Shown: positions 1 through 20,595 of the stretch, one piece after another
Position numbering within the stretch: the stretch's first letter is position 1
Layout of the letters: the number at the start of each line of letters is the position of its first letter
Origin: a virus
Lineage: Duplodnaviria > Heunggongvirae > Uroviricota > Caudoviricetes
IMG/VR virus record: IMGVR_UViG_2778261696_000009
Span: 1 to 20,973 of that record
Reading direction: 5' to 3' (one strand)
DNA: 20,973 bases
Notes under the pieces: model-generated
Seen by the model: only the letters and a program-made list of their open reading frames with translations
Database searches by the model: none
Told to the model about the DNA's origin: nothing
Program-made: the position numbers and the translations under genes

Positions 1-411
1 ATGCCTGCCCCCGTCGTCCTGATCCTTGCGGCCGGGCGTGGAGAGCGCTTTCTCGCCTCCGGGGGAAATACCCATAAGTGTATCGGCTGGCGTCAGTCCC
101 CGGAGGTTGCGCCTTATCGCTGGCCATTTGAAGAAAACGGGAGAACTTTCGACCTTGCGATTGAACCGCAGATTACGACTAATGATCTGCGTCTGATGTT
201 GAGGCTGGCTCTTGCCGGCGGAGGAATAACAATTGCCACTCAGGAAACTTTCAGGCCATATATTGAAAGCGGTAAGCTTGTATCGCTGCTTGATGACTTT
301 CTTCCACAATTTCCGGGCTTCTATCTGTATTTCCCACAGCGTCGCAATATTGCACCAAAGCTCCGCGCCCTGATTGACTACGTCAAAGAATGGCGGCAGC
401 AATTGGTTTAA
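1..411 (+). CDS. LysR-family transcriptional regulator, C-terminal fragment (5' end lies outside the window)
   Basis: ORF open from the window edge to a stop at 409-411. The C-terminal stretch (ITIATQETFRPYIESGKLVSLLDDFLPQFPGFYLYFPQRRNIAPKLRALIDYV) looks like the tail of a LysR substrate-binding domain. The first ~40 codons may be frame artefact. Likely host chromosome flanking the inserted DNA. Confidence 0.55.
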   Translation: MPAPVVLILAAGRGERFLASGGNTHKCIGWRQSPEVAPYRWPFEENGRTFDLAIEPQITTNDLRLMLRLALAGGGITIATQETFRPYIESGKLVSLLDDFLPQFPGFYLYFPQRRNIAPKLRALIDYVKEWRQQLV

Positions 412-670: not shown

Positions 671-977
671 AGAAAAAAGTTTTTTTTCGAAAGAACTGTT
701 CACACTGTTCACCTTTCTTTTGTCTCCTTTTATTTCAGAGTGATAGGTGGTGAATAATGGGTGAAGGGTGAACATTCGATTCTTCACCTCCGGCATTCTG
801 CCGGTGTGACTCATACCGGTGATTAATCCCCCATACTGAAATCACACAGGGAGAAAAAAAAGTTTTTTTTGATTTGATTGTTCACACTGTTCACCTTTCG
901 TTTTTCTCTTTTAATTTCAGTGTGATAACGGGTGAATACACGGTGAAGGGTGAACAGTGGATTGTTCACCTTCGGGG
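671..977. repeat. crr-like cis replication region: two ~125-bp direct repeats (671-800 and 851-977), each with TGTTCACC-type iterons in both orientations
   Basis: Both units start with an A-run/T-run (AGAAAAAAGTTTTTTTT) and share near-identical sequence. Exact TGTTCACC octamers at 706-713, 888-895 and 963-970; reverse complement GGTGAACA at 767-774 and 949-956; near-iterons TGTTCACA at 697-704 and 879-886. Located directly downstream of the alpha gene, as recalled for P4 crr. Confidence 0.75.
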
Positions 978-986
978 AATTCAGGG

Positions 987-1013
987 ATAAAAAAAGACCG
1001 GCAGATGCCGGTC
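987..1013 (-). terminator. Rho-independent terminator downstream of alpha
   Basis: On the minus strand: GC-rich hairpin GACCGGC-(4-nt loop)-GCCGGTC at 996-1013, immediately followed by a run of 7 T (plus-strand A-run 989-995). It sits 17 nt after the alpha stop. Confidence 0.6.
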
Positions 1014-1029
1014 AGATGAGTCATGATGG

Positions 1030-3363
1030 TCAGGTTGTCGCAGGGTCGTCACATTTTGGCAGCCAGTCGCCGTAGCTTTCCTCTTTCAGCGTCAGGTTGG
1101 TCTGTATCCCCTGTTTGGTATGGCGCTTCTCGTAATTCAGTCCGTATTCCTTCAGCATCACCGGCAGCCCCAGCCCGAACATTTTCAGACTGAGTACATT
1201 CCGGTAGCCGTTTGCCTCCATGTAGGCCAGATAGGCGTGATAGAGGTATTTACGGTAATTGCGCGGGATGATACTGGCGTTCCCCATATACATGCCGCTG
1301 GTCTGCGGCAGGGTTTCCAGATAGCCGATAAAATCAAACGTCGGGTCGGCATCCCGTTTGATGTTCAGCGCCTCGTATGAGTTCTGCTGGGACTGAAGCA
1401 GTGACCGGGCGAGCATCGGGTCGCTGAACTTCTGCATCAGGTGACGCACGATGACCGCCAGCTCGCGGGTGATTTTGTCCTTAAGCTGCGGGTCGCGCTC
1501 CTGCGGGGCTATCTGTTCCGGGAAGTGAATAATCACCCGCCGGCGTGACACGCCGCCGCTGCGGTCGGTGAAGCGCATCGGGTTATTGTTCACGGCCAGA
1601 ATTACCGCCGGGATATGCGTGGAGTATGCATCCCGGTATTTCGGGTCAACGGACACCGCATCGCCGCCGGTGATGGCCTTGAGTCCGGCACCGTCGCCGC
1701 TCCATTTTTCCTGGTCCGGCAGGCGTATCAGTGAGAAGCCAGTTAACGCGGCACGTTCACGCGGGGATTCCAGCGTCTCGATGGTGGCCGACGTGGCGTT
1801 ATCCTCCCCGGCCAGCAGGGTGGCTATTTCGGCCATGATACTTTTGCCGCTGCCGCCGGGACCGGTCACCTCCAGAAAGAGCTGCCAGTCGTAGCGGTTT
1901 GCCAGCACCATAAACAGTGCGGCCAGAATCACGTCGCGTTTTTCCGCACGACCACCGGCGGCACGGTCAAGCCAGCGCCAGAACGCGGGGGCGTGGGTTT
2001 CCAGCGTTTCCCCTTCCACCGGCGGGGTGAAATCCACATCGCACAGGGTGCGCATCCAGTGTGACGGACTGTGCGGGTGGAACGTGCCGCTCTGCGTGTC
2101 GAGCACGCCGTTACGAAAGCCAATCAGGCGGCGGGAGGGGGCTTCCTGCTGCGGAATAATCAGCTTCAGGGTGTCCACCACGGAGGCCACCTTCCCGGAG
2201 GAGAACGGCGCGCGCAGACGCTGAAACAGCCCGGCCACATCCCGGGCAAAGTCCTGTGGCGGCAGCACCTTCCAGACACCATTTTCATAGCGGGACAGAA
2301 GCTGGCCGTTGGCATCGACCGCGAGCGCCTCGCCGTAATGCTCATAGATACGCATGGCCTTTTCGCTGGTACTCATGGCGGAAAACTCCGCTTCGCTCAT
2401 GGTGTCGAACGGGCTTTCAGCCGGTGGCCGGATGGCATCATAAATGGCCTTACGGGTGGCTTCCCCGCCGTACTGCGTGAAGGCATCATTCCAGTCACCG
2501 AAGACCGGCGGCAGGGCAACAACACCTTCACACGCATCTGCGGCTGCGGCGGCTTTTGTCTGGCCGTCACCGCTGAGGTCACGGTCAGCAGCAAGGACAA
2601 TCTGACAGGCCGGATGCTTCTGCCGGGCAAGGCTGGCCAGAGAAAGGAGGTTCACGGAAGAAAGCGCCACCATCACCGTTTCACCGGTCAGGTGATGCAC
2701 GGTAAGTGCGGTCGCGTATCCCTCCGCTATCCACAGACGTTTTCCGGCCTGATTCTGTCCTTCAAGGGTGTGACAGGTGCCCCTGACCTGTCCGCCTTTC
2801 AGGGTGCGCTTACGGCCGTCAGCGCTGATTAACTGAAGGTTAACCAGTTCGCCGCTGTCGTCATACAGTGGCACCACAAGGTCACCGGCGCACCAGCTCA
2901 CGCCACCGGCTCTGTGTGTGCCGGTCAGCATCCGGCATTCCCGGCCGGGAAAACCCTTGCGGGTCAGGTAGGCGTTACCGGTTCCGGGACGGGTTTTCGC
3001 CATCAGGGTTTGTGCCAGTGCGGCGGCGTTCTTCCGGGCAGCGTCTGTTTCAGCACCGGCGGCGGCCGTCACTGCCGGGTCAGCCGGGGGCAGACAGCCG
3101 GTCACGGCAGCCACCTTTGCGGCCGCGTCGGACGGGGAAACACCAAACACCTTTTCAACCAGTTTCAGGCCGTCACCGGCACCACACTGATTGCAGTACC
3201 AGGTGCCGCGCCCCTCCCTGTCATCAAAACGGAAGCGGTCACTCCCGCCACAGACCGGACAGGGCTGATGACGGTTTTTCAGCACCTGAATCCCCAGCGC
3301 CGGGAGAATACGCGGCCAGTGGCCGAGCGCATGGCTGACGGTGGCGGTTACGTTCATTTTCAT
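1030..3363 (-). CDS. alpha: P4-type alpha protein: bifunctional DNA primase / helicase / origin-binding replication protein
   Basis: 777-aa ORF, the length recalled for P4 alpha. N-terminal zinc-binding motif (CPVCGG...CNQCG), Walker A P-loop (GPGGSGKS) mid-protein, and a C-terminal domain upstream of the TGTTCACC iterons it would bind. AAGGAG RBS 8 nt upstream of the ATG. GC-rich. Confidence 0.9.
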   Translation of the reverse strand: MKMNVTATVSHALGHWPRILPALGIQVLKNRHQPCPVCGGSDRFRFDDREGRGTWYCNQCGAGDGLKLVEKVFGVSPSDAAAKVAAVTGCLPPADPAVTAAAGAETDAARKNAAALAQTLMAKTRPGTGNAYLTRKGFPGRECRMLTGTHRAGGVSWCAGDLVVPLYDDSGELVNLQLISADGRKRTLKGGQVRGTCHTLEGQNQAGKRLWIAEGYATALTVHHLTGETVMVALSSVNLLSLASLARQKHPACQIVLAADRDLSGDGQTKAAAAADACEGVVALPPVFGDWNDAFTQYGGEATRKAIYDAIRPPAESPFDTMSEAEFSAMSTSEKAMRIYEHYGEALAVDANGQLLSRYENGVWKVLPPQDFARDVAGLFQRLRAPFSSGKVASVVDTLKLIIPQQEAPSRRLIGFRNGVLDTQSGTFHPHSPSHWMRTLCDVDFTPPVEGETLETHAPAFWRWLDRAAGGRAEKRDVILAALFMVLANRYDWQLFLEVTGPGGSGKSIMAEIATLLAGEDNATSATIETLESPRERAALTGFSLIRLPDQEKWSGDGAGLKAITGGDAVSVDPKYRDAYSTHIPAVILAVNNNPMRFTDRSGGVSRRRVIIHFPEQIAPQERDPQLKDKITRELAVIVRHLMQKFSDPMLARSLLQSQQNSYEALNIKRDADPTFDFIGYLETLPQTSGMYMGNASIIPRNYRKYLYHAYLAYMEANGYRNVLSLKMFGLGLPVMLKEYGLNYEKRHTKQGIQTNLTLKEESYGDWLPKCDDPATT

Positions 3364-3377
3364 GGTGTTGTTCTCCT

Positions 3378-3626
3378 TCAGTGCAGTACCGGCGCTTTTA
3401 TGTGACGGGCACAGAGTTCATCCATCACAACCAGCCCGAGAAAGGACAGCGACGGCGCGGCCTTCAGGGGGCCGGATTCCATTAAATCTTCCAGCAGGGC
3501 ACAGGCTATCTGACGCCCTTTTTCCTCACCGTGCTGGCGCAGATAAAAGCCCTCCAGCTCAGCGGCGATGGCCGCCTCCAGTGACTCAAGGGTGAGATGC
3601 GGGTAGCGGTGCTGACGTTCGCACAC
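3378..3626 (-). CDS. Small protein in the epsilon position, directly upstream of and co-oriented with alpha; identity unverified
   Basis: Stop lies 14 nt upstream of the alpha ATG and overlaps the alpha RBS, suggesting co-transcription. The start is uncertain: GTG at 3626 has no obvious RBS and internal ATGs exist. Called by position only. Confidence 0.35.
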
Positions 3627-3716
3627 GGTCAGCCAGGCACAGGCGACAGCGCGACGGTAAAGGGCAGCGCGTAAGACGGGCGGTACCGCGATTCACTGAC
3701 GTCAGCCTCCGGCAGT

Positions 3717-3998
3717 ATGAAACGCCCGAAAAGAATGCTTGTTACCGGATATTGTTGTCGGAGATGTAAAGGCCTTGCACTGTCAAGAACATCGCGGCGT
3801 CTGTCTCAGGAAGTCACCGAGCGTTTTTATGTGTGCACGGATCCGGGCTGTGGTCTGGTGTTTAAAACGCTTCAGACCATCAACCGCTTCATTGTCCGCC
3901 CGGTCACGCCGGACGAACTGGCAGAAAGCCTGCATGAAAAACAGGAACTGCCGCCAGTACGCTTAAAAACACAATCATATTCGCTGCGTCTGGAATGA
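3717..3998 (+). CDS. delta: Ogr/Delta-family zinc-finger late-gene transcriptional activator (single-domain)
   Basis: Cys4 pattern CRRC...(x22)...CTDPGC, with SRTSR and RFIVRP segments that align by eye with phage P2 Ogr (C..C...ARTSR...KERY.QC....C...RYIVKP). 93 aa as called; an alternative start is the ATG at 3735. Confidence 0.8.
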   Translation: MKRPKRMLVTGYCCRRCKGLALSRTSRRLSQEVTERFYVCTDPGCGLVFKTLQTINRFIVRPVTPDELAESLHEKQELPPVRLKTQSYSLRLE

Positions 3999-4071
3999 GG
4001 GCTGCCGGTTAACACCGGCCGTCGCCGCACACCGTATTTTTATTCTTCAGCATGATGAGAAAGAGATAACG

Positions 4072-4644
4072 ATGGAAAGCACAGCCTTACAGCAGGCCTT
4101 TGACACCTGTCAGAATAACAAAGCAGCATGGCTGCAACGCAAAAATGAGCTGGCAGCGGCCGAACAGGAATATCTGCGGCTTCTGTCAGGAGAAGGCAGA
4201 AACGTCAGCCGCCTGGACGAATTACGCAATATTATCGAAGTCAGAAAATGGCAGGTGAATCAGGCCGCCGGTCGTTATATTCGTTCGCATGAAGCCGTTC
4301 AGCACATCAGCATCCGCGACCGGCTGAATGATTTTATGCAGCAGCACGGCACAGCACTGGCGGCGGCACTGGCACCGGAGCTGATGGGCTACAGTGAGCT
4401 GACGGCCATTGCCCGAAACTGTGCCATACAGCGTGCCACAGATGCCCTGCGTGAAGCCCTTCTGTCCTGGCTTGCGAAGGGGGAAAAAATTAATTATTCC
4501 GCACAGGATAGCGACATTTTAACGACCATCGGATTCAGGCCTGACGCGGCTTCGGTGGATGACAGCCGTGAAAAATTCACCCCTGCGCAGAACATGATTT
4601 TTTCGCGTAAAAGTGCGCAACTGGCATCACGTCAGTCTGTGTAA
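4072..4644 (+). CDS. psu: Psu (polarity suppression protein; capsid decoration / Rho antagonist) of P4-like satellites
   Basis: 190-aa ORF, the length recalled for P4 Psu. Directly downstream of the delta-like gene as in the P4 sid-delta-psu operon (no sid here). GC-rich, helical-looking sequence. Confidence 0.8.
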   Translation: MESTALQQAFDTCQNNKAAWLQRKNELAAAEQEYLRLLSGEGRNVSRLDELRNIIEVRKWQVNQAAGRYIRSHEAVQHISIRDRLNDFMQQHGTALAAALAPELMGYSELTAIARNCAIQRATDALREALLSWLAKGEKINYSAQDSDILTTIGFRPDAASVDDSREKFTPAQNMIFSRKSAQLASRQSV

Positions 4645-4680
4645 AATTCCCCGAAAATCCGCCCGTTTTTACTGAAAAAA

Positions 4681-4710
4681 GCCATGCATCGATAAGGTGC
4701 ATGGCTTTGC
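4681..4710 (+). terminator. Possible terminator hairpin after psu
   Basis: Inverted repeat GCCATGCA-(9-nt loop)-TGCATGGC at 4681-4705, followed by TTT. Modest intrinsic-terminator features. Confidence 0.35.
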
Positions 4711-4735
4711 ATGCGTTTCCCTGCCTCATTTTCTG

Positions 4736-4763
4736 CAGACCGCGCCATTCCCGGCGCGGTCTG
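4736..4763. other. Perfect 11-bp GC-rich inverted repeat (CAGACCGCGCC / GGCGCGGTCTG) with a 6-nt loop
   Basis: Seen directly at 4736-4746 and 4753-4763. Not followed by a T-run, so not a classical terminator. Lies in the psu-cos interval, so it could be a packaging- or protein-binding element. Confidence 0.4.
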
Positions 4764-4808
4764 AGCGTGTCAGTGCAACTGCATTAAAACCGCCCCGCAA
4801 AGCGGGCG

Positions 4809-4827
4809 GGCGTGGCGGGGGGAGCAT
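4809..4827. other. Degenerate cos-like site (P2/P4 cohesive-end-like)
   Basis: GGCGTGGCGGGGGGAGCAT matches the recalled P2/P4 cohesive end GGCGAGGCGGGGAAAGCAC at most positions. It sits where cos lies in P4 (after psu) and coincides with the sharp GC-rich to AT-rich transition. Confidence 0.4.
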
Positions 4828-4902
4828 TGCGCGCTAAGGCTGATATTATAATTTTCTTTAATTCTATTTGGTATTTTGGCTTTATTCGTCAGAAGGAACG
4901 TT

Positions 4903-4937
4903 TAGAAATAGACCACTACAATGGATTGTAGCGGTCT
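4903..4937 (-). terminator. Terminator-like hairpin downstream of the int-RT-partner gene string
   Basis: 12-bp stem AGACCACTACAA / TTGTAGCGGTCT (one mismatch) with loop TGGA at 4910-4937. On the minus strand it is followed by ATTTCTAAA and begins about 10 nt after the partner-gene stop. Confidence 0.45.
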
Positions 4938-4946
4938 GCATGATAT

Positions 4947-5687
4947 CTAGCGTTGCATTTCAGTTACTATGAAATTTTCTTCTGTAATAGAATTCATTAT
5001 CTCAAAGTACAATTCTTCAGGTTGAATAAACGCCAACTCTTTGCAAAGGTTGACAATGGTATCACTATAAGTGATACCCATCCGAGGATTGAAAAGCTCA
5101 AATCTCTTGATGTTTCTTTTGTTTTTTGAGTAAAAGTTTAAAGTGAAATATATTAGCACCTGTCTAAGATCGTAAACACTAAACTTCCTATCTCCTGATT
5201 TTATTTCCACAAGAACATTTGAATAATAAATATCGCCATATGAATTATTTATTACTCCGCATCCATCGAATTGTGGAGACACTTCAATTTGGTTTTCCAT
5301 TCCATATCGAGACAAAATGTTTCTTGCTATTTCCCTTATGGCATTGTACTCAACCATGCTTAAGGGTAGCTTGAAGTTAGAACCGTAAGCGAACCGCTGT
5401 AGATATTCTTTTGTTTTTTCAAAAACAACCTGAAAATCAGCATTATGGAAGATATCATGTGCTGAAAGAATATTTCTGTCTAACGAATCATTCTGTATTG
5501 CCCTATATAAATTAAATGCGCACTCATTAACAAAGACGTTATTTGACCTATTAGCGCAGTCATCTAGAGGAGGATAAACGTCCTCGATGAGACTGCCGTT
5601 AATGATGCGTATGAAATTATTAGCATTTGGAAGCAATTGATTCCAAAATGAAGTGAATTTTCGAGAAAACGTTAATTCAGATATCAT
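4947..5687 (-). CDS. Partner protein of the reverse transcriptase (246 aa, unknown family; possible nuclease-like effector)
   Basis: AT-rich ORF whose ATG overlaps the RT stop as ATGA (5684-5687). No family recognised by eye. Contains GDIYYSNVLVEIKSG, i.e. D-x9-E-x-K in a hydrophobic beta-like context, weakly reminiscent of a PD-(D/E)xK nuclease core. Confidence 0.7.
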   Translation of the reverse strand: MISELTFSRKFTSFWNQLLPNANNFIRIINGSLIEDVYPPLDDCANRSNNVFVNECAFNLYRAIQNDSLDRNILSAHDIFHNADFQVVFEKTKEYLQRFAYGSNFKLPLSMVEYNAIREIARNILSRYGMENQIEVSPQFDGCGVINNSYGDIYYSNVLVEIKSGDRKFSVYDLRQVLIYFTLNFYSKNKRNIKRFELFNPRMGITYSDTIVNLCKELAFIQPEELYFEIMNSITEENFIVTEMQR

Positions 5688-7312
5688 AGCGCATCCTCAA
5701 GATTTCTTGCGGTATGCCTTTTACTTGCCCAATCCCTGTAAATCACCTCTACAAAGTTGAATGTTTTCTTATTATGCTCTCTCCAGTGCCGTCCTTCATC
5801 ACCTAAGATGTAACTGGAAACGATCAATAGTCTTCTCTGCAACGGATGCATTGCAGAGAAATTTTTTTTGATATCAGAAAGCCATGCGTAAGAATTAATT
5901 TTTGCCATTGACTGTGTAACTATGTTCTTGACTAAGATGCTTTCTGGATTGTTATTGTATATTTCACTAAGGATTAGGGTGGATTTTTCTGAATTTTCTT
6001 TTGAGAGCATTCGGGCTACATAGGCTAAGTTGAGCTCAGTACTCAAAATATATGAATCTTGTTTAATTAGTGCAGTTATTTTATCAAGAATAATATCTTT
6101 GGTTTCTGTGCTTAATTTTTGCCAGTTGGAGTTAGCTACTTGAATTATAGTTGTAAATATTGGATATAACTCATGCAAGTTATTAAACATTACTTTGAAA
6201 GCACTACTTATTATTTCATCTGATGTTGCTGAGAATGCCTTTATCAAATGCTTGCTAAAAGATTGGTTAATTTTTGATTTTTGTAACTCACTACTCAGCA
6301 TAGCTAACAAGTCAAAATCTTTTAAAGATTCCTTTATCTCTTCATATTCCTCTATCGCATTTGCTGAGTAAGGATCGAATCTTATAGGAAGACTCATAAA
6401 TTTAGCCTTCATAGGAGATTCTTCATCTTCATCATTACCATGCAACTTAGCTTTAGTTACTGAAAGGAACTCTTCTTTAGTAACAATATTGGTTTTTTGT
6501 TTCTGTAAAGTTAGCCCTTCATTTTCCATCAGTTTTTTACTAAGCAAAGTTAAAATCTTATGAGCATCCTCTCTAGAGTTACAAAAAATAACAAAGTCGT
6601 CGACATAACGCTTATAGTTGATTCTATTCATAGACAATAATTTATCAATAGAATCTAGAGCTAGTTCTGCTAATATTCTAGAGGCAGGACATCCAACTGG
6701 TACTCCATATGATTTTGTTTCACTAAATGTCTGTAGTAATTTCTTGATTTTCCCAGAGTAATCTTTATTGGGGTCGACTCTATCTAACGCATTTTCTAAA
6801 CGGTGGTGATAAATACGCGGATAGAAATCTGCTATATCGCATGTAAGTACATACTTTATTTCATCGTTAGAACATTCAGAGATACTGTCTTCTTGATATT
6901 TTCTCCAAGAGATCTCTTTATCAAAAAGAGAACCATCAGCAAGGTTTGGTTTAAAGCGATATGAATAAACCTGCGTTTTAGTAGATCTATTCCTTTCAAT
7001 ATCATCAGCGATTTTTAAAACTAACCCAAGAAAAAAAGCATTCCAGAATGGATCAATTTGGGTCGCCCACCTGTAACCATAATAACCAATACTTGAAAAG
7101 CTATTAATTATGTTTGGTGGAATCTCGATCCTTTTATTTTCAAAGTCATTAAATGTTTGCATTAATGCAGTTTTTACTTTCTCCTTATCATCTTCAAATA
7201 ACCGACTTTCAAATGGGTAAGGGAAAATATCTGTATCGCCGTGCTTTATAATATTTTCCAATGCAAGCTCAAAGCAATTTTCTAGTTTACTACTATCAAA
7301 CTCGTTACTCAT
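5684..7312 (-). CDS. Reverse transcriptase (Abi/DRT-like defence-associated RT: N-terminal RT domain plus ~250-aa C-terminal helical domain)
   Basis: RT palm motifs in canonical order: LTCDIADFYPRI (motif A-like), GVPVGCPASRILAELAL (motif B-like), YKRYVDDFVIF (motif C, YxDD box). The C-terminal half has no RT motifs and contains GRHWREH (R-x4-H). The ATG overlaps the integrase stop (AATGAGTAA) with AAGGAG 7 nt upstream. AT-rich. Confidence 0.85.
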   Translation of the reverse strand: MSNEFDSSKLENCFELALENIIKHGDTDIFPYPFESRLFEDDKEKVKTALMQTFNDFENKRIEIPPNIINSFSSIGYYGYRWATQIDPFWNAFFLGLVLKIADDIERNRSTKTQVYSYRFKPNLADGSLFDKEISWRKYQEDSISECSNDEIKYVLTCDIADFYPRIYHHRLENALDRVDPNKDYSGKIKKLLQTFSETKSYGVPVGCPASRILAELALDSIDKLLSMNRINYKRYVDDFVIFCNSREDAHKILTLLSKKLMENEGLTLQKQKTNIVTKEEFLSVTKAKLHGNDEDEESPMKAKFMSLPIRFDPYSANAIEEYEEIKESLKDFDLLAMLSSELQKSKINQSFSKHLIKAFSATSDEIISSAFKVMFNNLHELYPIFTTIIQVANSNWQKLSTETKDIILDKITALIKQDSYILSTELNLAYVARMLSKENSEKSTLILSEIYNNNPESILVKNIVTQSMAKINSYAWLSDIKKNFSAMHPLQRRLLIVSSYILGDEGRHWREHNKKTFNFVEVIYRDWASKRHTARNLEDAL

Positions 7313-8489
7313 TCACATTCTCCTTAATAAAAATATAATCTGAATACCACTGCATCATATCACGGCGTTTATCAATATATTGAGCATGATTATACGTACC
7401 TCTAATATTATTCTTATCTATATGAGCAAGCTGTATTTCTATCCAAGCCGAATCATATCCTTTTTCGTGGAGGATAGTAGATAAGGAATGTCGAAATCCA
7501 TGACCAGTAAGTTTTCCACCATAACCAATACGCTTGATAACTTGGTTAATACTCGCCTCACTCATAGGCTTGTTCGGATCGTTCCGCCCCGGAAAAACAT
7601 AACTATACTTCCCTGTCATCATCTTGAGTTCATTTAGCAAATCTAACGCTTGAGTCGACAAAGGCACAAGGTGTGATCTGCGCATTTTCATCCTTTCAGC
7701 AGGAATTTCCCAAATAGCGTTATCTAAATCAAATTCTGACCATAATGCCGCACGTAATTCGATGGTTCTAACACCTGTAATCATGAGCAATTTCGTGGCA
7801 ATCAGGACAAGCCGACTTCCGGTATATCCGTTTAAGGCGCGAAGAAAATCAGGTATCTCATTAGCCTTTAAGAACGGGAAATGATTTGATTGGTGTACAT
7901 TGAGGGCGCTTGAAAGATCCGCAGCAGGGTTAAACTCAGCCCTTCCAGTAGCAATGGCATAGCGGAAAACTTCTGAGCATCGCTGCCGAACTTTGCGCAT
8001 TTTTTCTAATGCACCGCGCTTTTCGATTTTACGCAGCACATTAAGCAGTTCTAGCGGTTTAATCTCTCCCACTGGCCTTGTTCCCACATAAGGAAAAATG
8101 TCGTTCTTAAACGCTTCCATGATGTCTGATGCATATCCCGCCGACCATTTGGTAGACTTCTGTTGATGCCACTCTCTGGCTATCTTTTCGAAGGCGTTCT
8201 CTGACTCTGTTTGCAGAGCCAGCTTTTGCTCTTTTCGAACCTCACTAGGGTTCTTTCCTTCTGCCACAAGTTTTCGAGCTTCATCACGACGGGAACGAGC
8301 ATCAGCAAGAGTGATCGTTGGGTAAACACCAAGCGAGATCATTTTGGGTTTACCGGCATAGCGATAACGAAATCGCCAGCTTTTACTTCCATTTGGCTCT
8401 ACAAGTAAAGACAACCCTTGCCCATCCCCAAGTGTATAGGCTTTAGCTTCAGGTTTAGCACGGCGAATCTGCATATCATTTAGGGGCAT
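7305..8489 (-). CDS. int: P4-type tyrosine integrase (site-specific recombinase)
   Basis: 394 aa. N-terminal arm-binding-like region, then a tyrosine-recombinase catalytic region with R (LMITGVRTIELRA), HGFRHSLST (H-x-x-R) and a C-terminal RGTYNHAQY tyrosine region. Located at the element edge next to the candidate attR. Confidence 0.9.
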   Translation of the reverse strand: MPLNDMQIRRAKPEAKAYTLGDGQGLSLLVEPNGSKSWRFRYRYAGKPKMISLGVYPTITLADARSRRDEARKLVAEGKNPSEVRKEQKLALQTESENAFEKIAREWHQQKSTKWSAGYASDIMEAFKNDIFPYVGTRPVGEIKPLELLNVLRKIEKRGALEKMRKVRQRCSEVFRYAIATGRAEFNPAADLSSALNVHQSNHFPFLKANEIPDFLRALNGYTGSRLVLIATKLLMITGVRTIELRAALWSEFDLDNAIWEIPAERMKMRRSHLVPLSTQALDLLNELKMMTGKYSYVFPGRNDPNKPMSEASINQVIKRIGYGGKLTGHGFRHSLSTILHEKGYDSAWIEIQLAHIDKNNIRGTYNHAQYIDKRRDMMQWYSDYIFIKENVNE

Positions 8490-8727: not shown

Positions 8728-10092
8728 TTGAATCTTATAGAAAAATCATCATTTTCTATGCGTCACAATCAATTTTCACATTACAAACGCTCCGACACTT
8801 TAGCCGGAGATTTTATGAGATACAAGCCTAACCAATACTTAATCTGTGATTCTTACGGTAACTACTATTTAAGGATCACGCTGCCTGTGTATATGCAGCC
8901 CTTTTTTGAAGGAAAAAGGACGTTTGTCAGAAGTCTACACACAAGTAATCTTCGTGTTGCACGTAGAAAGCGTGATCAGATTGCAGATGAATACCATTGC
9001 TTACGGGAGAGTGTTGCCCCTGTAAACAGCACAATAGAAAACACGCTGGAACTGTTACGCAGTAAGGCTAAATACGCCAAAACAGCTACCAGAGTGCAAG
9101 ATACAGCGTCTTCGTGTCCGTCATTGCTTAAAATTCTTGAAATCTACCTGACAATTAACAGCACGAAGAAGAAGCCAGCCACTTTAGCTAAGGCAAGAAA
9201 AGCGGTAGAGATGTTTCTCTCCTACCGTAAAAAGCCTGATATTGCATTGCAAGATGTAAGCCGCACCACTGTTACAGGCTGGATTGAACACATGCAAAAA
9301 ACTCTTTCACAACAATCAATTGCAAATTATATCAGTCCAATGGCCCAGCTATGGGAATTAGCTTCATCACGTTACCACGATGCGCCAGAAAGGGCGCTCT
9401 CCCCCTGGCGAGGGCATAGGCTTGATGTGGCACAAAGTAGAGAGAGCTACGAGGCATTTTCTAACAAAGAGCTATTGCAGGTGTTGCAAGTATTTTCCGG
9501 TAATTCAGCAGAAAACAAAGAAATGACGGCTTTGTGTCTTATCGGTTTATATACAGGTATGCGGATCAATGAGATAGCAAGTCTCACAATAGACGATGTG
9601 AAAGAGATCGAAGGTGTGCTGTGTTTTGAAATCACACAGGGAAAGACGAAAGCTGCGGCACGTGTTGTGCCTGTGCATAACCTTATCACTCCGTTGGTGT
9701 TGTCGCTGCGTGAAAAGCCTCACAATGGCTTTTTGTTCTATCACGCCAGCATTACAGAACGTGCTGACGGTAAACGCTCTACGTGGCATACACAACGATT
9801 TACAAGAGCTAAACGAAAGGCTTTAGGGGAAAAGGGAACAGAAAGGAAAGTGTTTCATTCTCTGAGACACGGAGTAGCACAGCTTCTTGATCGAAATCAA
9901 ATTCCAGAAGACAGGATCGCCCTTCTCCTGGGCCATACACGCGGCAATACAGAAACATTCCGCACATATAGCAAAAATGCAGCTTCTCCAATAGAGCTTA
10001 AAAAATATATTGAGCTTTTACGCTACCCTGAAATAGAGAAAGGCTTATCAATCAATAAAAAATCAAATTTAAGGCGTAAAACAACGCTATAG
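8728..10092 (+). CDS. Second tyrosine recombinase / phage-type integrase (likely true start at ATG 8815)
   Basis: C-terminal catalytic signatures: YTGMRINEIASL (R), HSLRHGVAQLL (H-x-x-R), LLGHTRG and FRTYSK (Tyr). The in-frame ATG at 8815 has a GGAG RBS 5 nt upstream. Divergent from the P4-type int. Confidence 0.8.
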   Translation: MNLIEKSSFSMRHNQFSHYKRSDTLAGDFMRYKPNQYLICDSYGNYYLRITLPVYMQPFFEGKRTFVRSLHTSNLRVARRKRDQIADEYHCLRESVAPVNSTIENTLELLRSKAKYAKTATRVQDTASSCPSLLKILEIYLTINSTKKKPATLAKARKAVEMFLSYRKKPDIALQDVSRTTVTGWIEHMQKTLSQQSIANYISPMAQLWELASSRYHDAPERALSPWRGHRLDVAQSRESYEAFSNKELLQVLQVFSGNSAENKEMTALCLIGLYTGMRINEIASLTIDDVKEIEGVLCFEITQGKTKAAARVVPVHNLITPLVLSLREKPHNGFLFYHASITERADGKRSTWHTQRFTRAKRKALGEKGTERKVFHSLRHGVAQLLDRNQIPEDRIALLLGHTRGNTETFRTYSKNAASPIELKKYIELLRYPEIEKGLSINKKSNLRRKTTL

Positions 10093-10172
10093 ACGTAATA
10101 AAGAGGCTTCAATATAGACTGATGCCTCTTTTATGATTATCTCGTTACAGAGCGTTTCATAGGCGTTTAAGG

Positions 10173-10850
10173 CTATTGTTTAAATACTGGCGTTACAACG
10201 TCTTGCCCTGGGCTTTTTTGATTTTTCTGTTCTGTTGTATTTACCTGCATTTTAACCTGGCCTCCTACAGATTTATTTGGTGCTGTTTTTACCGCAATTG
10301 CGCTTGTAGTTGCTTTAGAGACAAGACGGATTTGCTCAAAATCAAGAGTAAACAATAGGCTTTCGCTTGCTTCTTCTTCGTAAGACATGCCAACTAACAC
10401 AACGTTGTCATAATTTTTTAACTCAGTGACAAGTAGGAAAGGTTGGCGACTGTCCATCAACTGATTTAGGTATTCAAGCATAAGCATACGTCGATTGCCG
10501 TTAATTCCAGCATTCTTAATCATATCAGGATTGAGCTTCAATACGGTTTCAGAGATACGCCCTTGTAATGTGAACTTGTTATTCCGTATTTGAACATGAT
10601 CACTAACTTCTGATCCTGATTCGACGGCATAGCTTGTAACGTCCGCATTTCTGCTAACTTTCGTCGATTCCACGCTATCAAATGATAATGCCTGGTAGTC
10701 ATTGTAAGCAGCATTTGCACCACTGCCGAGATTAGAGGTAATGATCGCAAAGCCGTTACCCCCTTTGGTTGTTCTACCGTTGCTATCGTTGCTTGTGCTG
10801 TTGATTTTCGCCTCAGTCGGGCGACCAATGGTTAACGGACCCATTGCCAT
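10173..10850 (-). CDS. Hypothetical protein (225 aa), last gene of the structural-looking operon
   Basis: ORF with AAGGA RBS upstream of the ATG at 10850; Ser/Thr/Asn/Gly-rich N-terminus. Follows the 613-aa gene on the same strand. Function not recognisable by eye. Confidence 0.5.
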   Translation of the reverse strand: MAMGPLTIGRPTEAKINSTSNDSNGRTTKGGNGFAIITSNLGSGANAAYNDYQALSFDSVESTKVSRNADVTSYAVESGSEVSDHVQIRNNKFTLQGRISETVLKLNPDMIKNAGINGNRRMLMLEYLNQLMDSRQPFLLVTELKNYDNVVLVGMSYEEEASESLLFTLDFEQIRLVSKATTSAIAVKTAPNKSVGGQVKMQVNTTEQKNQKSPGQDVVTPVFKQ

Positions 10851-10897
10851 AATTTGTAATCCTTATTTAAGGGGGCTAAACAGCCCCACAGTGATGA

Positions 10898-12739
10898 TTA
10901 ATAGGTTGACCCGCCTGACATAACACCCAGCGTTAATAGCTTGCTAAACTCAGCGGAGGATGCCTTTGATTTGAAGTCGATAAATTCGCTCAATCGTCCG
11001 GTGTCTGATTCGATAGTTAGCGGCACTTCTGCATTTACTTGTAATTCTGGATTGAAGTTAATAACAGGTGCAAAGGTGTAAGAAGGAGCCTTGAAAGCTT
11101 GTTGTGCTGCACTCTGTTTCAGATTTGCAATGTTTTGTCCTTCGAGACTGTATTGATTTACAGCCTGCGCCCCACCTACCGTTTCTTCTGGCATAAACCA
11201 GCTTTTAATAGTGTTAACCAGGGAATTGCTGTTATCTGGCTTAGTTGTTCCGGTGCCAGCGCCTTTATATTGATCAGGAGTGAGATTAGAAAGATTCTGC
11301 TTCATTCCTTCGTTAGATAGTGGCGGTGCATCCCCTAAATTCTTCTGAATAGCTTCCGTCTTCTCGTCGTTTTTCATCAGCCAGTTGATTGTTTTCATTA
11401 CGGCGTTAACCAATCCGCCGATAGCCTCGCCTAATTTGGTAAACATTGGCAGCATTGCAACCATGCTCTTTTTAAACTCTTCAATCACTTTCGGATCAAG
11501 AGATTTCATAAAGCCATCAACAAAGGCGATCCCTTGTGAGTCAGAAAGCCCACTAAGTGCATTATTCAGTTCACGGAATTTAATAACGCTTTCCTGTTGT
11601 GCCTGTGTTACCCAGCGCCCTGATTCTCGTTGTTCTCGTGCTGATTGTTCCACTTCTTTAGCGGAGCGTGTCCAGTATTTAGAGGTGAGCATCAAATCAT
11701 CAGCCAGATCTTCCAGACGACTACCGATTTGTGCATCTGAATAGCCTTTCTTCACCATTCCCTGAACTGCTTTACTAACCAGACCAGCCGGATTATCAGC
11801 AAAGTCTTTTAGATCCTTTTTAGTTAAGAATCCTTCATTCATTAAAGTATTGATGCCGCTATCGCCGCCCTTCCATTCACCTTTGCCTGTTTTTTTATCG
11901 ACTACATATTCAGCCTCATCATAGCTTTTGGTTGCACGCTCACGCACATCTTTCATCTGATCGAGATACTTACGTTTACCTTGATCCCCCATCATTGAAT
12001 CAACGCCGTTTTTGTAGGCCCATTGCTCAATATTGTTCATCTGGTTAACGTCTACACCGCCCAGCTTCGCACGGCTATACAATTCACCCAGCGTTTCAGC
12101 ATTCGCAAAGCTGTTAGTAACAAATTCAGAGGCTTTGCTCATAGCCATATACGTAGCGCCAGCGCCTAAGCCACCCAGCATAACAGCCGCAGCACCGCCG
12201 CCAATACTCCCGCTACCCTTAACAGGTGCATAGGCTTTAGCGTGAGCGTTACGATTGCCATTAATCTTACGTTGTTGCTGTTGTAGGCGTTTCATTTGGC
12301 TATTCATACGTGCCAGACTAATAGCTCCTCTTTCATATTGGAGGGCAATTTCTCTAGCCTGTGCAATAGCTTTATATTGTTCCGCTACAGAAAGGCGGTG
12401 CAATGCACTAATGCTTGATCCAACGTCTAACAGTTTTAAGTCTGCCTTCTCTTTGCGTGCTGCCAGGGCTTTTTGTTCTCTTGCAACTACACGTTGAGCG
12501 GCTAATTGTGCTTTAGCATTGGCTTTATCTGCCTGTGCTTGCTTTTTAGCAATATCGTCTACGTCTTTTTTTGCTTTAGAAGTTGATTGTTTATGTGTCT
12601 TAACACGCAATTCTATATCTTTCACCGCCGCCATTTGTTTACGAAGTTTTTCTACTTCTGCTTTTGCTTTCTCTAATGATGGTCGATCAACCTGGAAGGT
12701 GACAACGTTTGATAAGCGGCTGACGTTAAGTTCTAACAT
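10898..12739 (-). CDS. Large coiled-coil / glycine-rich protein (613 aa), tape-measure-like or scaffold-like
   Basis: N-terminal ~150 aa strongly charged Lys/Ala/Gln-rich heptad-like sequence, then a Gly-rich hydrophobic segment (GSGSIGGGAAAVMLGGLGAGATYMAMS). This architecture is typical of phage tape-measure or internal virion proteins; the assignment is tentative. Confidence 0.6.
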   Translation of the reverse strand: MLELNVSRLSNVVTFQVDRPSLEKAKAEVEKLRKQMAAVKDIELRVKTHKQSTSKAKKDVDDIAKKQAQADKANAKAQLAAQRVVAREQKALAARKEKADLKLLDVGSSISALHRLSVAEQYKAIAQAREIALQYERGAISLARMNSQMKRLQQQQRKINGNRNAHAKAYAPVKGSGSIGGGAAAVMLGGLGAGATYMAMSKASEFVTNSFANAETLGELYSRAKLGGVDVNQMNNIEQWAYKNGVDSMMGDQGKRKYLDQMKDVRERATKSYDEAEYVVDKKTGKGEWKGGDSGINTLMNEGFLTKKDLKDFADNPAGLVSKAVQGMVKKGYSDAQIGSRLEDLADDLMLTSKYWTRSAKEVEQSAREQRESGRWVTQAQQESVIKFRELNNALSGLSDSQGIAFVDGFMKSLDPKVIEEFKKSMVAMLPMFTKLGEAIGGLVNAVMKTINWLMKNDEKTEAIQKNLGDAPPLSNEGMKQNLSNLTPDQYKGAGTGTTKPDNSNSLVNTIKSWFMPEETVGGAQAVNQYSLEGQNIANLKQSAAQQAFKAPSYTFAPVINFNPELQVNAEVPLTIESDTGRLSEFIDFKSKASSAEFSKLLTLGVMSGGSTY

Positions 12740-12773
12740 GCTAATTGTTTCCCTGTATTATGATTGTTGTTTA

Positions 12774-12971
12774 TTATTGTTTTTTAGAGCAATAGTATTG
12801 AATTGCTTCGAAAGTGCTGCACCCAGTCTGAAAGACACGCTGGCGCACATTATTTGCATCAATTTCTAAAAGGCGGCAAAGCGCCGATGTGTTTATAACT
12901 GATTCCTCGCTAATAGCTGCCAGTTCTTTTACAGCCTTAAGAATAAAGGATTGTGAGTTTTCTGTATTCAT
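12774..12971 (-). CDS. Small hypothetical protein (65 aa)
   Basis: ORF between the capsid-like and 613-aa genes on the same strand; weak RBS; no recognisable motif. Confidence 0.35.
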   Translation of the reverse strand: MNTENSQSFILKAVKELAAISEESVINTSALCRLLEIDANNVRQRVFQTGCSTFEAIQYYCSKKQ

Positions 12972-13122
12972 TGGTTTTCTCTCACATATATATTTTTATT
13001 TGGGTTTGTAGACAGTAGAAAAACAAAAAGGGCAAAGAGATTCGTTACTGTATTTGCGCCTACAGGTTAGTTAATCCCTTTACCCTTATTGCCCCGATGG
13101 GGAATCGTCTATTAACGCTTTA

Positions 13123-14154
13123 TTACGCAGCAGATCCGAAGATGATAGCTTGCGGAATGTTGTTTACTGGCAGATAAGATGTCTCAGTAACCACAGATGG
13201 GAATTGGAATTCATCCTTGATTAGATATTGGTGATGCAACACGGCATCTTGACCTAACTCAGCATGACGCACACCAACGCCGCTATGAAGCTGGTAACAC
13301 TGTGCCGCTTTATCCATTACCGGAACAATTGCGAAACCGTTCTCTCCGATGTGAGCAACAATCTCAGGAAACATTGACACATCAATAACAGTGATCCCAC
13401 CAATCTGGAAAGAGTCATAGGCTGGGTTAGAATCAACCATACGGGTAAACAGGGCCGTAGCACTCGCATCGCCTGCATATTTCACCATGTCACTGATCAG
13501 CGGGTTAGATGACAAACCATCAGCAGCAGTGCCAGCAGCAAAGATAATTACACCAGTTCGCTTTGCAGCAAGACCAGACCCCAGCTTTTCACTCTGTAAG
13601 CGCACCGCTTTACGAATAGCAAGGAACGGGTTAACAGTAGTCGATGCAAAGTCGATAGCGGGTACCGTGGTTTTAGCCTGACCGTCGAGGAAGTCGAGAT
13701 CACCTTGTCCGGCATATTCAGATTCAACTTTCAGGCCCAGCAGCGCGGTAATCAGATCCACTTCAACACGGTTTGCGTGTGAACGGTAATGAGCCTCAGA
13801 GAAATCATTAACCGCTACCAGCATAGCATCAGAACGGTTTGGATATTGGCGGCTGTATTGTTCCAGGTCACGAGAAGTAACAGCGTTAATACTGCCGACG
13901 TGTTTCATCTGGAAAAGTTTGTTTGACCATTCCTGACGTTTAGAGGCGTTCCAGTCGCTTTGAGCGTAAGGCGAGGTTTCCCCAGCTACCTGCACAAACT
14001 GATCAATCAGGTCGGTAAGAAGAATGCTGTTTTCTGTATGATATTGCACATCGAACAGATCGAGATTAGTAATCAGGGTATTAAGTGCATTCTCATAAGC
14101 AAATGGAGTTACTACCGCAGTATTAACGCCAAAATATGTTGATAAATCATTCAT
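13123..14154 (-). CDS. Putative major capsid-like protein (343 aa); identity tentative
   Basis: Strong RBS (AAGGAAA, 8-nt spacer). Size and position immediately after a ~127-aa decoration-like gene mirror the lambda-type D-E (decoration, major capsid) arrangement. No direct sequence match could be verified by eye. Confidence 0.55.
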   Translation of the reverse strand: MNDLSTYFGVNTAVVTPFAYENALNTLITNLDLFDVQYHTENSILLTDLIDQFVQVAGETSPYAQSDWNASKRQEWSNKLFQMKHVGSINAVTSRDLEQYSRQYPNRSDAMLVAVNDFSEAHYRSHANRVEVDLITALLGLKVESEYAGQGDLDFLDGQAKTTVPAIDFASTTVNPFLAIRKAVRLQSEKLGSGLAAKRTGVIIFAAGTAADGLSSNPLISDMVKYAGDASATALFTRMVDSNPAYDSFQIGGITVIDVSMFPEIVAHIGENGFAIVPVMDKAAQCYQLHSGVGVRHAELGQDAVLHHQYLIKDEFQFPSVVTETSYLPVNNIPQAIIFGSAA

Positions 14155-14168
14155 TATTATTTTCCTTG

Positions 14169-14552
14169 TTAAGTCGTAGGGATCGCAAGTTCTTCATAAC
14201 CAGCAATTACAAAGCCGAGAGATTGCAGTTTTGCAATAACACTTGCCTTTTCCATGCTGTTAAATTCAATCCCATCTTCAGCCAGAATAACGAAAGTAGG
14301 ATGTGCAACCACTACGCTTTCCTGTCCTTCATAAGCCGGTTCAACTACTACGTGAGCAATATCAGATGCGGTTGTTGCTTTGGTGCCATCGGCTTTCAGC
14401 AAAGCCCCGACAATAAGATCGTCAGTGAGAGGTGAAGCCAGTTTGACGAGGCGATCTTGCAGCACTGGATCAGCAGCGTAAGCTACTACCTTACAGCGTG
14501 AACGGGAGTTATCCGCATTCACTGCTTTTAATTTTCCATATGGGTTAGCCAT
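14169..14552 (-). CDS. Putative head-decoration-like / small structural protein (127 aa); identity tentative
   Basis: RBS AAAGGAAAA embedded in the end of the upstream small gene (tight coupling). Ala/Val/Gly-rich beta-looking sequence; size and position are consistent with a capsid decoration protein. Confidence 0.5.
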   Translation of the reverse strand: MANPYGKLKAVNADNSRSRCKVVAYAADPVLQDRLVKLASPLTDDLIVGALLKADGTKATTASDIAHVVVEPAYEGQESVVVAHPTFVILAEDGIEFNSMEKASVIAKLQSLGFVIAGYEELAIPTT

Positions 14553-14556
14553 AAGA

Positions 14557-14754
14557 TTATTTTCCTTTCAGTTGTTTAATTTTAGATTTAAGGGCATCAG
14601 CAAGACTAACCGCATCAGCCGATTTAAATAATTGAGCAGTGGTAGAACGAAGACTTTCGGGAGTAACTCCCAACAGTGCGGCAACCTTAATGAGGTTTTC
14701 ATCACTAACAATCATCGTTTCCCCGTCTTTGCTGATAATCATTTCTTGTTTCAT
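14557..14754 (-). CDS. Small protein (66 aa from ATG 14754; the track calls a TTG start at 14796), first gene of the structural-looking operon
   Basis: ATG at 14754 is preceded by AGGAAC. Its stop overlaps the RBS of the next gene. Confidence 0.45.
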   Translation of the reverse strand: MKQEMIISKDGETMIVSDENLIKVAALLGVTPESLRSTTAQLFKSADAVSLADALKSKIKQLKGK

Positions 14755-15738
14755 AAATAATGTTCCTGTTAGTGCCAGACAAATAAAAAGCCCCAATGCC
14801 GTAAGAGGTTAATTCTGACCAGCAAAGGGGCTTTAACGTGCGGGCAATTACATAATTGATAAGTTAAACTATAAGAGGATTAAACATATCAGCAAATACA
14901 CTTTTTAAATATACTTGATGATATGCTTAAAGGGTGAATAGATACTCCTGAAAACATGCTCTTAGGAAAACATGCGGAATCAATCAGGAATATCTATTCG
15001 GGGCGCGGTGGCCAACCGCTATCTTTCATGGTGTGGATGCACCAGTCAGATTTTAAGGAATCACTATTCCAATCTACTCACAGATTAAATTTTTAATAAT
15101 GATTAACTACACCAACAGTAATCTACCGTTTCAGAAAATCGTTTTTACAACCAAAGCTTATAGATCCGCATTCTATAAAACCCGTTTTGCTATCAATATT
15201 TCCAAAGTTTATTGCACCATTCTTAGCTAAACTCTCTCTGCTTGCGGCTAACGCTATGCAGATGATTGTTTTTGACAACAACTTAATAGATTATTCTGTT
15301 ACTAACTTCTGTCATTAAATAATAGTTTAATGATGTTAGTAAATAGTTATAAAATATAACTATCAGTGTAAGGCTCTTTAATGTTTTCTGACAAAATAAG
15401 GAGCTTTAGGATAAGCATAGATGAAAAATAATAGCGGGAAGGGCAAGGAGATAACACCTACCCGCTTTTATCAAAATTAAGCACAATGCCTAACAACATT
15501 CATCAACACAACGTAGAAACAATCAACAATCAAAGAGGGAGTTATGATTATTCTAAAACTTCTTGAGAGATGGAAGGTAATATTTGTTAGAGGTTAATGC
15601 CACTCAACCTTTGAGGCTATCACCTTCCATATGCAGGGATTTATGACAGTAGAAGGATTAACACCAACTAAAATCTTTTTATCTACCCCTAAAATTATTA
15701 TATAACAAAATCATTATAAATGCAAATAATTTTCATTA

Positions 15739-16038
15739 TCATTTAGAGAAAATAGCACTTTTTGCTAAATCATCTACTAATTGCTGAATCTCTTCACTTG
15801 CAACCTTTAACGTGGTGGCGATGTCTGTGATGATTTGATTACACTGTTTTGCATCGTCCTCTGATACGCTCACCAGAGAGATAAAATCGTCAAGGCTTAC
15901 ATTCACCTTCATTAAGCTAATAACGCATTGAGAGAGCGTGTAATCGCATAAATCTGAATAGGCTTGATTTATTCTTGTTTGTAGTGAGATAGTCAGATCT
16001 AAAAGTTGTTCCATTGCATTGCTAATATCTTCTTCCAT
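15739..16038 (-). CDS. Small hypothetical acidic protein (99 aa)
   Basis: ATG overlaps the stop of the upstream gene (TAATG); AAGGAG RBS 9 nt upstream. Last gene of a minus-strand string of small ORFs. Confidence 0.5.
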   Translation of the reverse strand: MEEDISNAMEQLLDLTISLQTRINQAYSDLCDYTLSQCVISLMKVNVSLDDFISLVSVSEDDAKQCNQIITDIATTLKVASEEIQQLVDDLAKSAIFSK

Positions 16039-16240
16039 TATGCGTATTCTCCTTGTAATGCATCATTAATCATATTCAATACGATGTTAAAAGGTGTCTT
16101 GAGCGTCAGCACTTCATCACGGTAACGCTCTAATGCTTCGTAGTCTTCTGTTTCTTTTGCCAGCCGAATTAACTCTGCATAGTTTTTTGCATCAGACAGG
16201 ATCATCTGAAATAATTGTGTTTCTTGAATATAGCCAATCA
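16038..16240 (-). CDS. Small hypothetical protein (67 aa from ATG 16240; the track extends to 16283)
   Basis: ATG at 16240 has an AGGA-containing RBS (AAAAAAGGAAAAATAATG); the upstream ATG at 16283 has none. Stop overlaps the next start. Confidence 0.5.
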
Positions 16241-16298
16241 TTATTTTTCCTTTTTTGAATATTTTCATTGGGCGCTTATACATACACCCATCATTTTA

Positions 16299-16682: not shown

Positions 16683-16779
16683 TTTTCCCTCTTTTTATGT
16701 GGATTATAAAAACTGGACGCCATTGTTACGATGAATATCGCCATAAATGCATTTGCCATATGTATTGCCCGATCTGTTG

Positions 16780-17049: not shown

Positions 17050-17058
17050 TTATTCTCC

Positions 17059-17851: not shown

Positions 17852-17874
17852 TTGGTTTTCTCCTTCTCCTGTTA

Positions 17875-18057: not shown

Positions 18058-18180
18058 TAATTAACCTCCTATTCTATTTGGTTAAAAGAAAAAGACACCT
18101 TGCAAGCCTCTTGGGCTTCAAAGTGCGGTGCATTGGTTTAATTATTTAGAGGATAGGAATGTTTTCCTGTCCCTAATATT

Positions 18181-19689: not shown

Positions 19690-19696
19690 AAGGAAA

Positions 19697-20519: not shown

Positions 20520-20595
20520 ATTAGGGTAAATTACCATCCTTGTAACATCATTTAATGCATGTTCTAATCTTCCTATCGTAAAACCGGAGGAAGTT

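Follow-up and report, generated by a model that had tools for sequence, protein, structure and literature searches.

Does the two-gene reverse transcriptase (RT) module that lies between psu and the integrase gene (int) of a P4-like satellite represent a new antiphage system, and how might its two proteins work together? We approached these questions in a window of 20,973 nucleotides, which is the whole stretch of viral DNA that was analysed. An earlier interpretation made from the letters alone, referred to here as the sequence-only reading, had proposed an undescribed RT-based antiphage system whose RT could not be placed in any known DRT/UG class and whose partner was unexplained and of no recognisable family. 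As a general reading, a two-gene RT-based antiphage module proved correct, but the system is not undescribed. The element is very probably a P4-like satellite prophage of E. coli that carries, in its variable cos/psu-int hotspot, a defense-associated cassette of DRT type 8 (PADLOC; Mestre et al. 2022), made up of a UG7 RT and a PD-(D/E)XK nuclease effector, and the pair is already known as P4-hotspot system no. 2.

Both open reading frames, of 542 and 246 aa on the minus strand, are present as had been proposed, and Pfam bears out their position between psu and a tyrosine integrase gene (Table 1). A chance pair of open reading frames is excluded: the longer one matches RVT_1 (E 1.2e-18), and the module occurs at an identity of at least 99% in 106 of 5,426 complete E. 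coli genomes (~2%), chromosomal every time. The two genes are ATGA-coupled through letters common to the RT stop and the partner start (GCGCTATGATATC, minus strand). At the other end of the module, the RT start overlaps the int stop, with the RT ATG at 7312-7310, the int TAA at 7307-7305 and 8 nt shared between the genes. The AAGGAG upstream of the RT (7325-7320) is a strong Shine-Dalgarno sequence. A promoter search upstream of the RT returned 14 sites against 13.5 expected, none of them better than chance. Folding of the minus-strand RNA of 4830-4950 gave a hairpin 3' of the nuclease gene, with a 12-bp stem and a 4-nt loop followed by UAUUUCU (z = -2.4 versus shuffles), and this is plausibly the terminator of the cassette.

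Table 1. Features of the DRT8 cassette and its surroundings, in window coordinates.
Feature	Coordinates	Strand	Details
Drt8 reverse transcriptase (UG7, Class 1 UG/Abi)	5684..7312	-	542 aa; PADLOC Drt8, Pfam RVT_1
DRT8 effector, RT-associated PD-(D/E)XK nuclease, RecB/Cas4 type (predicted)	4947..5687	-	246 aa; ATGA-coupled to RT
Probable cassette terminator (function inferred)	4910..4937	-	12-bp hairpin, 10 nt past nuclease stop
Shine-Dalgarno AAGGAG of RT gene	7320..7325	-	Inside last int codons; read from sequence
cos-like sequence GGCGTGGCGGGGGGAGCAT	4809..4827	+	4 mismatches to P4 left cohesive end; psu-side hotspot boundary
Tyrosine integrase, P4-like element	7305..8489	-	Pfam Arm-DNA-bind_3, Phage_int_M, Phage_integrase
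psu (polarity suppression / capsid decoration)	4072..4644	+	Pfam Psu E 1.3e-88; 99% identical to P4 psu region

Profile searches assigned both proteins over their full length. The RT matched the PADLOC model Drt8 with an E-value of 4.9e-166 (552 bits; residues 11-532 on profile positions 4-492 of 493), and the runner-up among PADLOC models was RT_UG21 at 128 bits (E 1.2e-37). The partner is covered full-length by the PADLOC model RTasPDDEXK (E 5.5e-69, 230 bits; residues 1-239 on profile positions 1-224 of 226), though Pfam is silent on it. For the RT, Pfam reported RVT_1 alone, and every NCBIfam DRT and retron model scored below its cutoff. By themselves, Pfam and NCBIfam would therefore leave the RT unclassified and the partner hypothetical, and it was the defense-specific PADLOC library that resolved both. 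The RT can thus be placed in a known class after all, and the partner is explained as the cluster-17 PD-(D/E)XK effector of DRT type 8 (PADLOC; PMC9226505). The sequence-only reading had considered that the RT might fall into an already characterised single-gene family; it does belong to a characterised family, but that family is a two-gene one.

The RT has an intact active site and a domain organization typical of its class. Motifs A, B and C were all located, at residues 156, 203 and 233. The catalytic residues comprise D159 of motif A and Y236-V-D238-D239 of motif C (YVDD, 236-239), and none of D159, D238 and D239 varies across 57 aligned RT homologs that are 44-96% identical to the window protein. 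Two tyrosines, Y118 (S117-Y118-R119) and Y315 (D313-P314-Y315-S316), are invariant in the same alignment. Structure prediction gave confident models of both the RT and the partner. In the AF2 model of the RT (pLDDT 89.1), a palm and fingers region (~60-290) is followed by a flexible linker (~293-317), of low confidence at 293-298 and 314-317, and by a C-terminal alphaRep domain (~319-541), with residues 319-541 modelled as an all-helical repeat domain of about 13 helices. Foldseek against the PDB returned full-length matches to UG15/DRT4 (E 6e-12), DRT6 (TM 0.59), Abi-P2, AbiA and AbiK, in alignments spanning ~540 columns. These enzymes, the Class 1 UG/Abi members with an alphaRep domain and a solved structure, are the best full-length fold matches of the RT. 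A sequence search of the PDB yielded neither a DRT8 structure nor any match to the partner, and AbiK aligned over the RT core only (E 2e-7). Together, the profile and fold matches make the protein a Class 1 UG/Abi RT, and the resemblance to Abi-type RTs remarked on from the letters is borne out.

Within this class, the closest structural relatives are nevertheless different systems. DRT4 (UG15) and DRT6 (UG12) are the best structural matches over RT and alphaRep domain combined, both act against T5, and protein-primed, untemplated ssDNA chemistry is probably common to them and the window RT. DRT4, however, is a different sequence family, and we rejected it as the identity of the RT: the NCBIfam Drt4 model scored 76 bits against an equivalog cutoff of 450, and, whereas DRT4 and DRT6 are single-gene systems that lack a dedicated nuclease and depend on ExoI of the host, the window holds a two-gene operon. 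AbiK, AbiA and Abi-P2 have the same Class 1 UG/Abi architecture and no ncRNA, and none was found for the window RT in Rfam or in the flanks of four loci, but they are single-gene systems, and AbiA has a fused HEPN domain. An assignment to this group was also rejected, with the PADLOC AbiP2 model reaching just E 7e-24 against 4.9e-166 for Drt8.

The partner has a RecB/Cas4/MGME1-like fold according to fold searches of its model. Its best matches are MGME1, Dna2 and Cas4, all of them processors of ssDNA ends, and further matches include Exo5, RecE, RecB, AddA, Cas4 and lambda exonuclease. Because of these matches, the partner is predicted to be a RecB/Cas4-type nuclease that processes DNA ends. 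D152, E161-x-K163 and a QxxxY motif are invariant among its homologs, as is the N-terminus, M-I-S-E. Since only one of its four cysteines (C143) is conserved, a Cas4-like Fe-S cluster is unlikely.

The genomic setting is that of a psu-int cargo hotspot in a P4-like satellite, as confirmed by alignment to P4, by the variability of the cargo and by Tables S1A and S1B of Rousset et al. Window positions 673-3685 and 3684-4808 correspond to P4 4291-7291 and 10500-11624, respectively, at 98-99% identity. This homology stops at window position 4808, equivalent to the P4 right end at 11624 and exactly at the right cohesive end. The 19 nt that follow (4809-4827, GGCGTGGCGGGGGGAGCAT) resemble the P4 left end, GGCGAGGCGGGGAAAGCAC, with 4 mismatches; a scan with the P4 cos 19-mer at up to 3 mismatches found no site, and it was the P4 alignment that located this one. 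The carrier satellite is a deletion derivative from which 3.2 kb of backbone is gone, comprising the 5' end of ORF106, ORF151, epsilon, cI, ORF88, ori, sid and the 5' half of delta. On the opposite side of the cargo, the integrase is 90% identical to that of a related O157:H7 element, the two proteins can be aligned as far as residue 387 of 394, and at the DNA level similarity falls away only over the final few codons. This decay past residue 387 puts the AAGGAG stretch on the cargo side of the junction and, taken together with the end of P4 homology, delimits a variable segment of about 4835-7328. The overlap between int and the RT gene thus exists because the cargo junction sits within the last int codons. 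G+C makes up ~33% of the cargo interval and 54-62% of the P4 backbone that lies left of it. In the O157:H7 element, the same interval holds an 'ABC-three-component' cargo, and in E. coli the int gene is found at an identity of at least 99% in 460 records versus 106 for the DRT8 cassette. The interval behaves as a hotspot, which confirms the findings of Rousset et al.

This exact allele has been tabulated before. The RT, partner and integrase are 100% identical to WP_000064054, WP_000622599 and WP_001130497 (strain ECCRA-119), and the entry 'RVT_1 + hypothetical: WP_000064054 + WP_000622599' is repeated in Table S1A, which covers P4-encoded loci (Rousset et al. 2022, Cell Host Microbe, PMC9122126). 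In Table S1B of the same study, the pair is system no. 2, with 294 occurrences among 5,251 P4 hotspot loci, and is annotated 'UG7; protein 2 weak homology to nucleases' (PMC9122126). The allele is therefore the second most frequent P4-hotspot system, with identical proteins in the same psu/cos-int position; what differs is the window's carrier satellite, with its 3.2 kb backbone loss. Among the supplements of that study, the RT and partner sequences occur in supplementary file 2 only and are absent from file 3, which lists the tested systems (Table S2) (PMC9122126). The main text of a September 2026 NAR paper on P2/P4 hotspots names neither DRT nor retron (PMC13586616).

The class itself was defined by Mestre et al. 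(2022, NAR, PMC9226505). UG7 falls among the Class 1 UG/Abi RTs, and one of its phylogenetic variants is linked to 'cluster 17', a protein with remote homology to PD-(D/E)XK. When a UG7 system was rebuilt in E. coli K-12 with its native promoter, it gave robust protection against T5, and defense was abolished by mutation of the RT catalytic site and by mutation of the PD-(D/E)XK active site (PMC9226505). The combination of UG7 with the cluster-17 PD-(D/E)XK protein was named DRT type 8, and UG7 was noted within P2/P4 variable regions (PMC9226505). We detected no difference between this system and the window cassette: both proteins fit the family profiles full-length, the two-gene layout and the Class 1 alphaRep RT are the same, the catalytic residues of RT and nuclease are intact, and both are found in P2/P4 variable regions. 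Given the class of Mestre et al. and the listing of the identical pair by Rousset et al., the DRT8 cassette, its class name, the defense phenotype of the class and the location in the P4 hotspot are all already published. Roughly one in two UG7 RTs comes without the nuclease (PMC9226505), and in some of the UG7 family it may therefore have an accessory role.

How the RT and nuclease cooperate is a separate matter. A literature search for DRT8/UG7 found no dedicated mechanistic paper, and a May 2026 review states of DRT8 'dedicated mechanism not yet established' (PMC13213688). AbiK, AbiA, Abi-P2, DRT4 and DRT7 synthesize ssDNA without a template and prime it on the protein itself, at a tyrosine located in a flexible loop (PMC12783706; DRT7 preprint). 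Like these Class 1 UG/Abi RTs studied so far, the DRT8 RT would make untemplated, protein-primed ssDNA that is attached to its own tyrosine, with Y118 and, in the flexible RT-alphaRep linker, Y315, both of them invariant, as candidates. The RT-DNA conjugate would control or feed the RecB/Cas4-like, DNA-end-dependent nuclease. A trigger during infection, for example a phage protein that alters ssDNA turnover, would license the nuclease, and the licensed nuclease would destroy phage DNA, host DNA or both, resulting in abortive infection or direct interference. An ncRNA template would play no part. We offer this only tentatively: that the covalently attached, untemplated ssDNA of the DRT8 RT gates or feeds an end-dependent effector nuclease is possible, somewhat short of probable. 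A further reading is rather doubtful, namely that the partner acts on the RT's own protein-primed, untemplated ssDNA, either processing or releasing this product or responding to it as a gate, with priming from Y315 or Y118 and with the invariant M-I-S-E N-terminus of the nuclease as part of the coupling.

Priming residues in related enzymes offer a point of comparison for the two tyrosines. The priming residue of DRT4 is Y125, and that of AbiA sits in the RT-alphaRep linker (PMC12783706; DRT7 preprint). Y118 is near Y125 of DRT4 in linear position, and Y315 falls in the low-confidence RT-alphaRep linker, the same place as the priming residue of AbiA.

The roles of DNA and nuclease could also be reversed, such that DRT8 resembles DRT4 in its mode of action. 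The product of DRT4 is normally trimmed by host ExoI and accumulates to toxic effect once T5 ORF55 caps its 3' end (PMC12783706). In a DRT8 of this kind, the untemplated ssDNA would itself be the toxic effector, and the nuclease would trim or release it while sparing phage and host DNA, acting either as a built-in ExoI equivalent or as a processor that frees the ssDNA from the priming tyrosine. The fold matches are consistent with such an arrangement, as DRT4 and DRT6 are the best ones for the RT and the ssDNA-end processors MGME1, Dna2 and Cas4 are the best ones for the partner. So are two observations on the published family, namely that DRT8 also targets T5 and that half of UG7 RTs lack the nuclease (PMC9226505). 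Immunity is lost in nuclease active-site mutants, however (PMC9226505), whereas mutation of a nuclease that served purely as an antitoxin-like trimmer should bring autotoxicity or stronger defense, and we consider a DRT4-like toxic ssDNA unlikely here. The argument from the nuclease mutants leaves standing the version in which the nuclease releases or processes the ssDNA.

Conservation of the operon bears on whether the two genes form one system. The RT-to-nuclease order and the same 4-nt overlap are also found in Thalassospira (Alphaproteobacteria), in Snodgrassella, where the copy adjoins a relaxase/MobC module, and on a metagenome contig, with unrelated neighbours in each case. The arrangement thus spans alpha-, beta- and gammaproteobacterial loci. 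It might be argued that the satellite simply carries two independent cargo genes, a single-gene Abi-type RT defense and an unrelated nuclease adjacent by chance, given that AbiK, AbiA, Abi-P2, DRT4 and DRT6 are single-gene systems and that one UG7 variant lacks the nuclease; the recurring coupled pair, the dedicated RT-associated PADLOC model for the partner and the requirement of defense for both active sites (PMC9226505) essentially refute this, and we regard it as extremely improbable.

Equally hard to credit is a retron-like or Class 2 DRT whose RT would use an unrecognised ncRNA, encoded within the genes or next to them, as its template. ncRNAs are needed by DRT2, DRT3, DRT9 and retrons, and an RNA that lies within a coding region, for instance in the 3' end of int, would escape searches of intergenic DNA. 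Against this, an Rfam search of the window at gathering thresholds gave no match, and the upstream and downstream flanks of four unrelated loci, a small sample, share no conserved sequence. Just 85-165 nt lie 5' of the RT in the Thalassospira, Snodgrassella and metagenome-contig loci, and in the window the overlap with int leaves zero intergenic space and hence no room upstream for a retron-style ncRNA, as the sequence-only reading had pointed out. The alphaRep domain and the best fold matches are those of Class 1 enzymes, all untemplated so far, and the retron, Drt2, Drt3 and Drt9 profiles scored far below Drt8. The missing ncRNA signal fits the Class 1 UG/Abi systems, none of which is known to use an ncRNA.

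Retrons with nuclease effectors do share with the window cassette the logic of an RT and a co-encoded nuclease effector, and they too are carried in P2/P4 hotspots. The window cassette, in contrast, gave no sign of an msr/msd ncRNA in the Rfam search, and its RT belongs to another RT lineage and is larger, with 542 aa and an alphaRep domain versus the compact ~300-350 aa of retron RTs. The retron_St85_RT profile scored 56 bits on it versus a cutoff of 235. With no retron RNA in Rfam, no intergenic space upstream and unconserved flanks in the four unrelated loci, we rejected a retron.

As a discovery, the cassette adds little, for the system, its name, its phenotype and its hotspot are all in print. 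Its interest is that DRT8 is among those DRT types for which a mechanism has yet to be worked out. The window allele is abundant and both of its predicted structures are confident, making it a convenient native E. coli model for the interplay between a Class 1 RT and the RecB/Cas4-like nuclease dedicated to it. If the partner does act on the RT's own protein-primed ssDNA, DRT8 would link an enzyme that writes DNA with a nuclease dedicated to DNA ends, a coupling so far undescribed for any DRT, and this novelty would belong to the whole DRT8 family rather than to this locus.

Comparison with related elements indicates that the P4-like satellite in the window is a deletion derivative. Alignment to the reference satellite P4 (NC_001609 7292-10499) and to the corresponding locus of E. 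coli ECCRA-119 (L001 9578-12784) places approximately 3.2 kb of missing sequence at the window junction 3684-3685. This segment is retained in P4 and also in the ECCRA-119 element, which is otherwise 99.9% identical to the window's satellite. The lost material comprises the 5' end of ORF106, ORF151, epsilon, cI, ORF88, ori, sid and the 5' half of delta, leaving two truncated reading frames at the junction. The satellite is probably immobile, although its DRT8 cassette and its int, alpha and psu genes are all intact.

Features at the deletion junction and at the edges of the satellite
Feature	Position	Strand	Remark
LysR-type regulator, C-terminal part	1..411		LysR_substrate
DUF5375 remnant, 82 aa	3378..3626		left by the ~3.2-kb deletion
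delta remnant, 93 aa	3717..3998		left by the ~3.2-kb deletion
Second tyrosine integrase	8728..10092	+	Phage_integrase, DUF6538
Dit-like tail protein	10173..10850		in low-GC phage-like block

On the right, homology to ECCRA-119 and other genomes stops at 8672, and a second tyrosine integrase gene lies directly past this point. It is followed, within 8728-20973, by a low-GC phage-like block that encodes a Dit-like tail protein together with ORFs of 613 aa and 343 aa that lack a Pfam or PADLOC match. In strains H3 and ZH48, a tRNA-Thr sits at the point matching window 8672, and ARAGORN found no tRNA in the whole window. The sequence past 8672 appears to be a second element that integrated in tandem, using the same att site. 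On the left, the truncated LysR-type gene at the window's edge also flanks the satellite in ECCRA-119. Positions 1-553 additionally match the end of a phage record, OP434518 (phi458), at 99.1%, where they are annotated as 'tail assembly protein'; this match probably reflects host DNA, or a wrong annotation, in the phage record.

Within the DRT8 cassette, two tyrosine motifs are invariant in the RT, and both are candidate protein-priming sites. S117-Y118-R119, in the motif at residues 116-119 (about 6956-6967, minus strand), is close in linear position to Y125 of DRT4. The second, D313-P314-Y315-S316 (about 6365-6376, minus strand), falls in the linker joining the RT and alphaRep domains (pLDDT <50), which is where the priming residue of AbiA lies. 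In the nuclease partner, the first four residues, M-I-S-E (5676-5687, minus strand), are invariant in 95/95 homologs, down to 33% identity. The ATGA overlap puts no constraint on the partner's coding sequence beyond the first base of codon 2, so S3 and E4 are conserved for another reason, with RT contact, an active-site role and translational coupling as possibilities.

The ECCRA-119 island beside the P4-like int, which is not present in the window, encodes a second, different RT (WP_032195564, 568 aa, 'reverse transcriptase domain-containing protein'; L001 20846-22552) near a DUF4062 protein and a recombinase. In one genome, E. coli EN-1077 (NZ_CP159209.1 902968-906649), an IS3-family insertion splits the DRT8 cassette into two matching pieces spread over 3.7 kb rather than 2.4 kb, an arrangement that marks this copy as naturally disrupted. 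Finally, an 896-aa protein from an ENA metagenome (P0180) joins a DRT8-like RT, 56% identical across 99% of the query, to protein-kinase Pfam domains (PF07714/PF00069), and this architecture may represent an alternative effector or sensor fusion of the UG7 family.
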